A stretch of 64,000 nucleotides of DNA. It comes from a virus (Duplodnaviria; Heunggongvirae; Uroviricota; Caudoviricetes). The position numbers and the translations under genes were made by a program. The DNA lies in IMG/VR virus record IMGVR_UViG_637000107_000010. One strand, written 5' to 3'. The notes beneath the pieces are model-generated. The model was not told where the DNA came from. It was given only the letters and a program-made list of their open reading frames with translations, and made no database searches. Positions 6,739 through 6,814 of the stretch are shown here, piece after piece (within the stretch, counting starts at the first letter, position 1; every line of letters starts with the position of its first letter).

Positions 6739-6814
6739 ATTAGGTAATTCTAATTTTTCTTGACTTAGGTTTCTCTACGATCTAGTTTCCTTAGGAAAAT
6801 CTAAGGGTTTCGAT
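6739..6814. promoter_or_regulatory. Immunity-region promoter/operator segment (oR-like) with palindromic operators
   Basis: Inverted repeats TTAGGTAATTCTAA and CCTTAGGAAAATCTAAGG plus a TTGACT -35-like hexamer in the 76-bp gap between divergent genes. Confidence 0.5.

Follow-up and report, generated by a model that had tools for sequence, protein, structure and literature searches.

Two divergent regulatory genes and five palindromes

The 64,000-nucleotide stretch of Caudoviricetes DNA analyzed here (IMG/VR record IMGVR_UViG_637000107_000010; hereafter, the window) carries two divergent regulatory genes, one for a repressor of 135 amino acids (aa) and one for a Cro-like protein of 75 aa, together with a set of palindromes in the non-coding DNA on both sides of the repressor gene. 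The repressor is 63% identical to DicA of the E. coli K-12 prophage Qin over its full length and identical to the repressor of another locus (L035), annotated as WP_000787428.1; the Cro-like protein is 83% identical to K-12 DicC. The only Pfam domain found in the repressor is HTH_3, in its N-terminal part, where residues 2-69 match structures of the DNA-binding domain of P22 c2 (1adr and 2r1j; E 1e-21). Its length, the absence of a Pfam match to peptidase S24 and the end of its similarity to c2 at residue 69 place it outside the class of cleavable repressors with a C-terminal S24 domain (lambda cI, P22 c2, and 434 cI). An earlier note on this DNA had spoken of a "P1 repressor"; the protein is not C1 of phage P1 but a member of the DicA family with a P22 c2-like N-terminal domain, and "P1" has to be read as prophage 1.

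PPompW lambdoid prophages of Shiga-toxin-producing E. coli O145:H28 match the region at 99.7% identity, full-length at 5700-7700. In the PPompW records, the two switch genes are annotated as dicA and dicC, and ydfC, rem, and a gene for a "cell division inhibition protein" (DicB) are present as well. The locus is the immunity region of a PPompW lambdoid prophage. Its composition is that of a DicA/DicC module: a non-cleavable repressor of about 135 aa, a divergent DicC gene across a gap of about 80 base pairs (bp), here 76 bp (6739-6814), three palindromes in this gap, and further predicted operators downstream, over the promoter of an operon resembling ydf-dicF-dicB.

From 6739 to 6814, the gap reads A-TTAGGTAATTCTAA-TTTTTC-TTGACT-TAGGTTTCTCTACGATC-TAGTTT-CC-TTAGGAAAATCTAA-GGGTTTCGAT. 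The two clear inverted repeats and the third, partial site that the earlier note saw in it are our S1, S3, and S2, respectively, and the similar half-sites that it placed near 6170-6260, on the other side of the repressor gene, belong to L1 and L2 (Table 1). The sequence TTAG-N6-CTAA occurs exactly three times in the window, at 6206, 6740, and 6791, and copies with one mismatch lie near the repressor gene at 6242 and 6765; all five are within the 284 bp of non-coding DNA that make up the two gaps flanking the 135-aa gene. The centers of S1, S2, and S3 are 25 and 26 bp apart, and those of L1 and L2 are 36 bp apart. Between the repressor stop codon and the first leftward open reading frame (ORF), no third site matching at least six of the eight core positions was found besides L1 and L2.

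Read from the outside to the center, the ten half-sites follow the pattern n-C-T-T-A-G-R-w-w, in which T4, A5, and G6 never vary and a purine always occupies position 7 (10/10). The consensus of the five sites is nCTTAGRww / wwYCTAAGn, an 18-bp frame with the 14-bp core TTAGR-N4-YCTAA, and their centers are AAAA, TAAT, TTTC, ATAG, and AAAA. Thus, the palindromes that had been described with the motif TTAGG are real, but the purine at position 7 makes TTAGR the better way to write the half-site.

The sites overlap promoter-like hexamers. S1 abuts the repressor ATG and encloses the candidate -10 element of the repressor promoter. S2 overlaps the -35 hexamer and the spacer of the rightward promoter (pR), the predicted promoter that drives the cro-like, YdaT-like, and replication genes; its hexamers align with TTGACT-17-TATCTT of K-12. 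S3 starts one base past the pR -10 element and spans the expected pR start, and its right arm (CTAAGG, in the region 6803-6814) is also the Shine-Dalgarno sequence of the cro-like gene. In E. coli variants with the same repressor, GGAGTT replaces GGGTTT at 6803-6814, a better Shine-Dalgarno match that leaves the operator core untouched. On the other side of the repressor gene, L1 and L2 accompany the leftward promoter (pL), whose -35 hexamer (GGTCAA on the plus strand) is kept in K-12 dicBp.

Table 1. Features of the immunity region and of related genes in the window (positions count from its first letter; OR and OL, right and left operator regions; nt, nucleotides; sRNA, small RNA)
Feature	Position	Strand	Sequence	Basis or remark
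S1, Oa/OR3-like predicted operator	6738-6755 (18-mer); 6740-6753 (palindrome)		TATTAGGTAATTCTAATT; TTAGGTAATTCTAA	perfect TTAG-N6-CTAA core
S2, Om/OR2-like weak predicted operator	6763-6780 (18-mer); 6764-6779 (partial site)		ACTTAGGTTTCTCTACGA; CTTAGGTTTCTCTACG	one core mismatch (CTAC for CTAA)
S3, Oc/OR1-like predicted operator	6789-6806		CCTTAGGAAAATCTAAGG	perfect 6+6 palindrome, center 6797.5
L1, predicted OL operator	6204-6221 (18-mer); 6205-6220		ATTTAGAATAGCCTAAGA; TTTAGAATAGCCTAAG	perfect core; over pL -10 and spacer
L2, predicted OL operator	6240-6257 (18-mer); 6242-6256		GTGTAGAAAAACCTAAGC; GTAGAAAAACCTAAG	one core mismatch; just upstream of pL -35
pR-like promoter	6760-6788	+	TTGACT (6760-6765), 17-nt spacer, TAGTTT (6783-6788)	read from sequence
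Candidate -10 of repressor promoter	6747-6752	-	TAGAAT	8 nt upstream of ATG; sequence only
pL-like promoter	6203-6232	-	TTGACC (6232-6227), 18-nt spacer, TAAATT (6208-6203)	promoter scan
Hairpin, then T-run, after repressor stop	6267-6302	-	minus strand ends TTGTGTTTTTT	inverted repeat I9, 12-nt arms, 92% complementary
DicA-family immunity repressor, 135 aa	6331-6738	-		Pfam HTH_3, E 4e-14
Cro analog (DicC/P22_Cro family), 75 aa	6815-7042	+		Pfam P22_Cro, E 3e-13
YdaT-like gene (CII analog), next after cro-like gene	7026-7577	+
Leftward operon under pL/OL	4174-6122	-		ORFs and PPompW annotation
ORF of about 118 aa, first of leftward operon	GTG start near 6122	-
ydfC homolog	5477-5695	-
135-aa ORF of leftward operon	5047-5454	-
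DicF-like sRNA	4537-4586	-		43.5 bits, E 1e-7
DicB homolog	4174-4362	-		ORF
rem homolog	12138-12398	+		ORF; annotated rem in PPompW

The concentration of these sites is far from random. Shuffled sequence gives 0.52 exact copies of TTAG-N6-CTAA per 64 kb, against three observed, and the expectation from the local base composition of the two gaps is 0.008; shuffling the gaps 200,000 times never produced three or more exact sites. At a threshold of at least seven of eight positions, the window has 14 matches, five of them in the same 284 bp. The binomial probabilities are 9e-8 for three of three exact sites falling in the gaps and 3e-9 for five of 14 at the lower threshold.

Conservation of the sites and co-variation with the recognition helix

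In E. coli prophages with an identical repressor protein (DNA 97-98% identical), every half-site is kept: the whole OR gap is unchanged up to the end of S3, and OL differs only at spacer and flank positions, with L1 varying in spacer bases alone and L2 identical. This is the opposite of what the earlier note had named as grounds for giving up its proposal, namely a motif that is not conserved in prophages with the same repressor. At a locus of Enterobacter hormaechei whose repressor is 74% identical, L1 and L2 are the same base for base, and the DNA between and beyond them has diverged. In OR of this locus, S3 is kept and S1 and S2 each have a single change from TTAG to TTAA, so that eight of the ten half-sites are unchanged overall.

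For a broader comparison, we assembled 28 DicA-family loci from one-genome-per-species contigs and four phage records. The repressor ORF was located automatically in 23 of the 28, which, with the window, K-12 Qin, and the four phage records, makes 29 loci. The recognition helix HV(T/S)(I/V)SQWE is present in 15 of them, and the other 14 have different helices. The 15 include K-12 Qin, MN652886 (L003, deposited as Escherichia phage Rac), a phage deposited as Stenotrophomonas phage, and loci from Rosenbergiella, Symbiopectobacterium, and Yersinia, with protein identities of 53-74%. In these loci the motif search across related prophages that the earlier note had suggested finds the motif again, and in the same places. 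A site lies 4-5 nt from the repressor ATG, the place of S1, in 14/15 loci and 54-55 nt from it, the place of S3, in 15/15; a weaker site (at least 6/8) is found at 29-30 nt, the place of S2, in 6/15. Two more sites, 34-36 bp apart, follow the repressor stop codon. The motif is degenerate in the most distant of the 15 loci, and the middle sites of relatives are often strongly degenerate.

The motif follows the helix. At least one exact TTAG-N6-CTAA is present in 11 of the 15 helix-sharing loci and a copy with at most one mismatch in all 15, whereas exact copies are absent from all 14 loci with other helices. Loci with the helix S(G/D)SSISLWES have TTGAG-N4-CTCAA instead (exact in 4/5, at most one mismatch in 5/5), and those with SSVSVFKWEN have TAAC-N4-GTTA; all of these words keep to one 14-bp frame and to the same positions. 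Operators that co-evolve with a repressor/Cro pair would be expected to behave in this way. The DicA-family alleles with the TTAG-N6-CTAA core comprise the PPompW type, the Qin type, the L003 type (with L008 and L009), and the type of the phage deposited under Stenotrophomonas, with protein identities of 59-65%. As a separate observation, Cronobacter phage phiES15 (L006) and L019, with the SSVSVFKWEN helix, have TAAC-N4-GTTA in OR and OL, and the leftward site of phiES15, CTAAC-N4-GTTAG, uses the Qin-type half-site words GTTAG and CTAAC in opposite order (CTTAG and CTAAG in the window).

One operator position differs within the helix-sharing group. The PPompW and E. hormaechei loci, in which helix 2 starts with Ser-Gln-Ala-Ala, have C at position 2, and all loci with Thr-Gln-Arg have G (or T) there (S3 compared with L001, L003, L005, L014, and others). 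The pair may be a one-residue, one-base specificity determinant. Against this, the co-variation is no more than a hint and probably goes back to one evolutionary event. A further step would be cross-repression among DicA-type prophages that reside together in one Shiga-toxin E. coli genome: each could act on pR and pL of the others, and hence on DicB and DicF, and could be co-induced by their Rem, with specificity tuned only at position 2 (C versus G; Gln-Ala versus Gln-Arg). We consider this improbable and offer it as speculation from sequence comparison; if true, it would mean a simple, testable specificity code and a prophage crosstalk network like that of the Gifsy phages.

Correspondence with the Qin operators and alternative explanations

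The closest experimentally studied system is the Qin DicA/DicC switch, whose operators Oa, Om, and Oc were originally described by Bejar et al. (1986, 1988), as cited in Yun et al. (2012) and Ragunathan et al. (2023). In vivo, DicA binds Oc, TTGTTAGTCATAACTAACAA (TTGTTAG-N6-CTAACAA), and a change of CTAAC to CTCAC abolishes binding; DicA bound to Oc represses dicC and activates dicA (Yun et al. 2012). According to a 2024 preprint, DicC ChIP-seq (chromatin immunoprecipitation sequencing) peaks lie on both sides of dicA and yield the palindromic motif TT(A/C/T)G ... C(G/A/T)AA. The K-12 dicA-dicC gap contains CAT-AG-TTAGCTAATGCTAA (Oa), then TTGACT ... TATCTT, and then G-TTAGTTATGACTAA-C (Oc), and K-12 dicBp carries ATTAGCCATGACTAAC, which is homologous to L1.

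We conclude that the five palindromes are very probably the operators of a DicA/DicC-type (Qin-like) lambdoid immunity switch. This builds on what the sequences show: the sites are present, cluster non-randomly, are conserved, vary together with the recognition helix, and overlap promoter-like hexamers. The earlier note had arrived at the same general reading, operators in an OR-like gap and an oL-like set past the repressor gene, and it gains support from the conservation of the sites, their positions relative to the promoter-like hexamers, and their match to Oa, Om, Oc, and the dicBp sites.

Several points weigh against this conclusion. The clustering statistics are post hoc, as the motif was picked after the sequence had been seen; the main weight is therefore on the comparative evidence, which is independent of the motif choice. 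The hexamers of pR and of the repressor promoter scored below the threshold of the promoter scan and rest on homology and inspection. The DicF-like sRNA has no Rfam match at the gathering threshold (43.5 bits in a relaxed search, compared with a gathering score of 48). Finally, and this is the main uncertainty, neither Om alone nor Oa alone was bound by DicA in vivo (Yun et al. 2012); thus, S1, S2, and L2 may fail to bind repressor by themselves and may need cooperativity, or they may serve mainly the Cro analog.

The last point leads to a simpler arrangement than the three-plus-two of lambda, in which only S3 and L1 would be working repressor operators and S1, S2, and L2 would be relics or sites of the Cro analog alone. 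The Qin binding data fit such an arrangement, as do the core mismatch in each of S2 and L2 and the frequent strong degeneration of the middle sites in relatives. On the other hand, the offsets of S1, S2, and L2 are fixed across loci whose proteins are 53-74% identical, L2 is base-for-base identical in E. hormaechei although the neighboring DNA has diverged, and assays on isolated sites miss cooperative binding. Lambda OR2 is filled by cooperative binding. On balance, we regard two working sites as unlikely, though worth keeping in mind.

Another possible partner of the palindromes is the CII-like protein of the YdaT family encoded next to the Cro analog, in place of the repressor/Cro pair. There is a published precedent in the Rac prophage, where YdaT binds three operators in the racR-ydaS intergenic region and a YdaT-box. 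We reject binding of this type because the published YdaT-box, TTGATT-N6-AATCAA, is a different word. Moreover, a candidate YdaT-type box lies elsewhere, at 7019-7036, and TTAG-N6-CTAA co-varies with the repressor helix and matches both the DicA-bound Qin sites and the DicC ChIP-seq motif, which makes a YdaT partner very unlikely. That the palindromes are chance features of A/T-rich promoter DNA with no protein partner is effectively refuted: the A+T content of the two gaps is indeed high (62%), and short palindromes occur often in DNA of this kind, but three exact sites against 0.008 expected, a number that no shuffle reached, and conserved positions with a motif that co-varies with the helix across genera are not what chance leaves behind.

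A model of the switch

For the operators of a DicA/DicC-type switch, binding, the site preferences of each protein, activation, and the antirepressor route can be inferred by homology from Qin, P22, and lambda. The 135-aa repressor would bind as a dimer through its P22 c2-like helix-turn-helix, reading TTAG (positions 3-6 of the 18-bp frame) directly and making no contact with the A/T-rich center. Occupation of S3, at the pR start, and of S2, at the pR -35 element and spacer, would keep the cro-like, YdaT-like, and replication genes off, and S3 probably helps to fill S2. S1, over the -10 element of the repressor promoter, would be the likely place where the Cro analog or excess repressor turns the repressor gene down, and the repressor at S3 probably also activates the repressor promoter, as reported for DicA at Oc. 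With L1 and L2 occupied, the leftward operon would be silent, including the DicF-like sRNA, DicB, YdfD, the exonuclease, and, by annotation, xis and int. The 75-aa homolog of DicC and P22 Cro would bind the same sites in another order of preference. As the repressor has no S24 cleavage domain, induction in this model must go via an antirepressor, predicted to be the product of the rem homolog, and not through RecA-stimulated self-cleavage.

Promoters, terminator, and leader

For Qin, Yun et al. (2012) report a pair of -10 and -35 elements that agrees with the dicC start they mapped, with Oc overlapping the -10 element; the letters of the hexamers are absent from their text. The candidate -10 element of the repressor promoter is only 8 nt from the ATG, the -35 element is poor (GAGAAA), and the repressor gene has no Shine-Dalgarno sequence. 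This suggests that the repressor mRNA is leaderless or nearly so and that its promoter is activator-dependent, like lambda pRM. The report of Yun et al. (2012) that dicA has no consensus promoter and is activated by Oc-bound DicA is consistent with such a promoter.

The hairpin and T-run after the repressor stop codon are probably a terminator that separates the repressor transcript from pL; the terminator scan missed the structure because its G+C content is low.

Downstream of pL, the minus-strand transcript has a leader of about 60 nt (6139-6197; plus strand TTCCCCTTAACGCCGGGTAGCGGAACTGTTTGCTGAGAACACCGTGCGGTGTCTTGATG) that is 95-98% identical in K-12 Qin and many E. coli genomes. This identity persists even in genomes with other operators, another repressor, and another first downstream gene. 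The leader contains a small hairpin, CACCG-tg-CGGTG, and matches no Rfam family at E values up to 1. It is either a mosaic junction or a functional RNA element.

Prophage context and other genes in the window

The leftward operon continues beyond the DicB homolog to a ydfD-like gene and an exonuclease gene, followed by xis and int according to the annotation of the reference record. The names DicB and YdfD follow the K-12 sequences and the PPompW annotation. The exonuclease-like ORF (823 aa; 1422-3893, minus strand) is intact in the window and frameshifted, by annotation, in PPompW_132418. Between the 135-aa ORF and the DicB homolog, and adjoining the DicF-like sRNA, there is a weak match to STnc100 (4343-4548, minus strand; 32 bits compared with a threshold of 47).

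On the rightward side, the ATG (7026) of the YdaT-like gene lies within the sequence TTGAAC-AATGAA-AATCAC at 7019-7036. This sequence is similar to the published YdaT-box (ATGATT-CATGAA-AATCAA in Rac; TTGATT-N6-AATCAA in CP-933P), including where the start codon sits in the spacer, and may serve as an activator site of the CII type for a reverse promoter resembling pRE within the cro-like gene.

The rem homolog probably encodes the antirepressor that inactivates the non-cleavable repressor, by analogy with K-12, where Rem derepresses dicBp 165-fold (Ragunathan et al. 2023). Control of this gene by LexA was considered and has no support: CTGT-N8-ACAG occurs only once in the window (7880-7895), inside a replication gene and at the level expected by chance. 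In the early right region of the prophage, a sok antitoxin RNA (Rfam RF01794, 103.9 bits; 11618-11767, plus strand) adjoins a hok/gef-type ORF (11708-11920), and the two make up a type I toxin-antitoxin locus.

Ambiguous bases form 89 stretches of one or two Ns, all at or beyond 10077 and none in the operator region; they put X residues into several translations, including that of the rem homolog. For the 24 kb at about 13000-37000, no phage record covers at least 80% (the best covers 27%). This part has piecemeal matches to other lambdoid and Stx-type phages, which include an annotated cI repressor, exonuclease VIII, O protein, and Q, and the window thus seems to hold a mosaic or a second prophage.

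Novelty and significance

The sites give a testable operator consensus for this immunity type, as the earlier note had said, but the type of operator is not new, as it has already been described for Qin DicA/DicC. The finding is ordinary because the sites match that type. What is new is the sites of this particular allele, whose exact sequences were not found in our literature search. The result is a five-site, testable operator map for one widespread immunity type, and it leaves the understanding of such switches unchanged. Among complete E. coli genomes, 2,808 records were hit by an 801-bp probe, and in 1,223 the match covered at least 80% of the probe. The count includes related alleles at about 68% identity; strains of O157:H7, O145:H28, and O111:H8 are among the genomes matched. 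The prophage is annotated with type III effector genes and cell-division inhibitors, and knowledge of its operators helps to predict superinfection immunity, prophage crosstalk, and the way in which DicB and DicF are controlled in pathogenic strains.

Comparison with known immunity systems

The P22 c2 protein binds as a dimer to an 18-bp operator, with contacts at positions 2-7 and 12-17; the central four bp, where A/T is favored, are not touched. The window resembles P22 immC in the N-terminal domain of its repressor, for which c2 is the closest solved relative, in a Cro analog of the P22_Cro family, and in two-fold symmetric 18-bp sites whose outer bases would be read directly, around an A/T-rich center that, by homology, would be left uncontacted. 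The P22 half-site is TTAAG (positions 3-7), which has the outer T-T-A in common with TTAGR and differs at position 6, A in P22 and G here. A search for operators of P22 specificity, TTAAG-N4-CTTAA, in OR and OL of the locus found none, either exact or with one mismatch; the word here is TTAGR. Thus, the locus is related to P22 in fold and frame, and its immunity specificity is different. The recognition helix, AHVTISQ here and SNVAISQ in c2, differs in two residues, and the C-terminal part of the repressor is short (65 aa), whereas c2 has a RecA-sensitive S24 domain.

As in lambda, the repressor and cro genes are divergent, three spaced operators lie over pR and the repressor promoter, and a second set lies over the leftward promoter. 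The repressor mRNA is probably leaderless, and the logic would be bistable, as demonstrated for DicA/DicC in K-12 by Ragunathan et al. (2023). The differences from lambda are the operator word, the Cro protein family, the predicted lack of RecA-mediated cleavage, and the OL region, where only two sites, bracketing the -35 element at their distance of 36 bp, are recognizable, compared with OL1-3 in lambda. The short repressor without a cleavage site is shared with the Gifsy and Fels phages (GfoR and GfhR), and so, we expect, is induction via a small antirepressor encoded elsewhere on the prophage. In the Gifsy phages, however, the antirepressors are controlled by LexA, and no LexA box was found near the rem homolog here.

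The Qin prophage is the nearest counterpart. The TTAG-N6-CTAA core lies at the same three OR offsets and two OL positions, S3 being the positional homolog of Oc. Both loci have a non-cleavable repressor of 135 aa, a divergent DicC gene, TTGACT as the rightward -35 hexamer, and a leftward promoter that contains GGTCAA and is followed by the same conserved leader and by an operon with ydfC, DicF, and DicB; the prophage here also has an ORF annotated as rem, a gene that Qin carries. The window differs in position 2 of the half-site, mostly C (CTTAG) here and G (GTTAG) in Qin, and in helix 2, SQAAL here and TQRSL in Qin. The counterpart of Om is nearer to the consensus here, the distance from the repressor stop codon to OL is 36 bp longer, and the unrelated ORF of about 118 aa takes the place of ydfA and ydfB. 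Finally, Qin is a cryptic remnant, whereas the PPompW record has, by annotation, a near-complete set of lambdoid genes, two of them frameshifted, along with type III effector genes.

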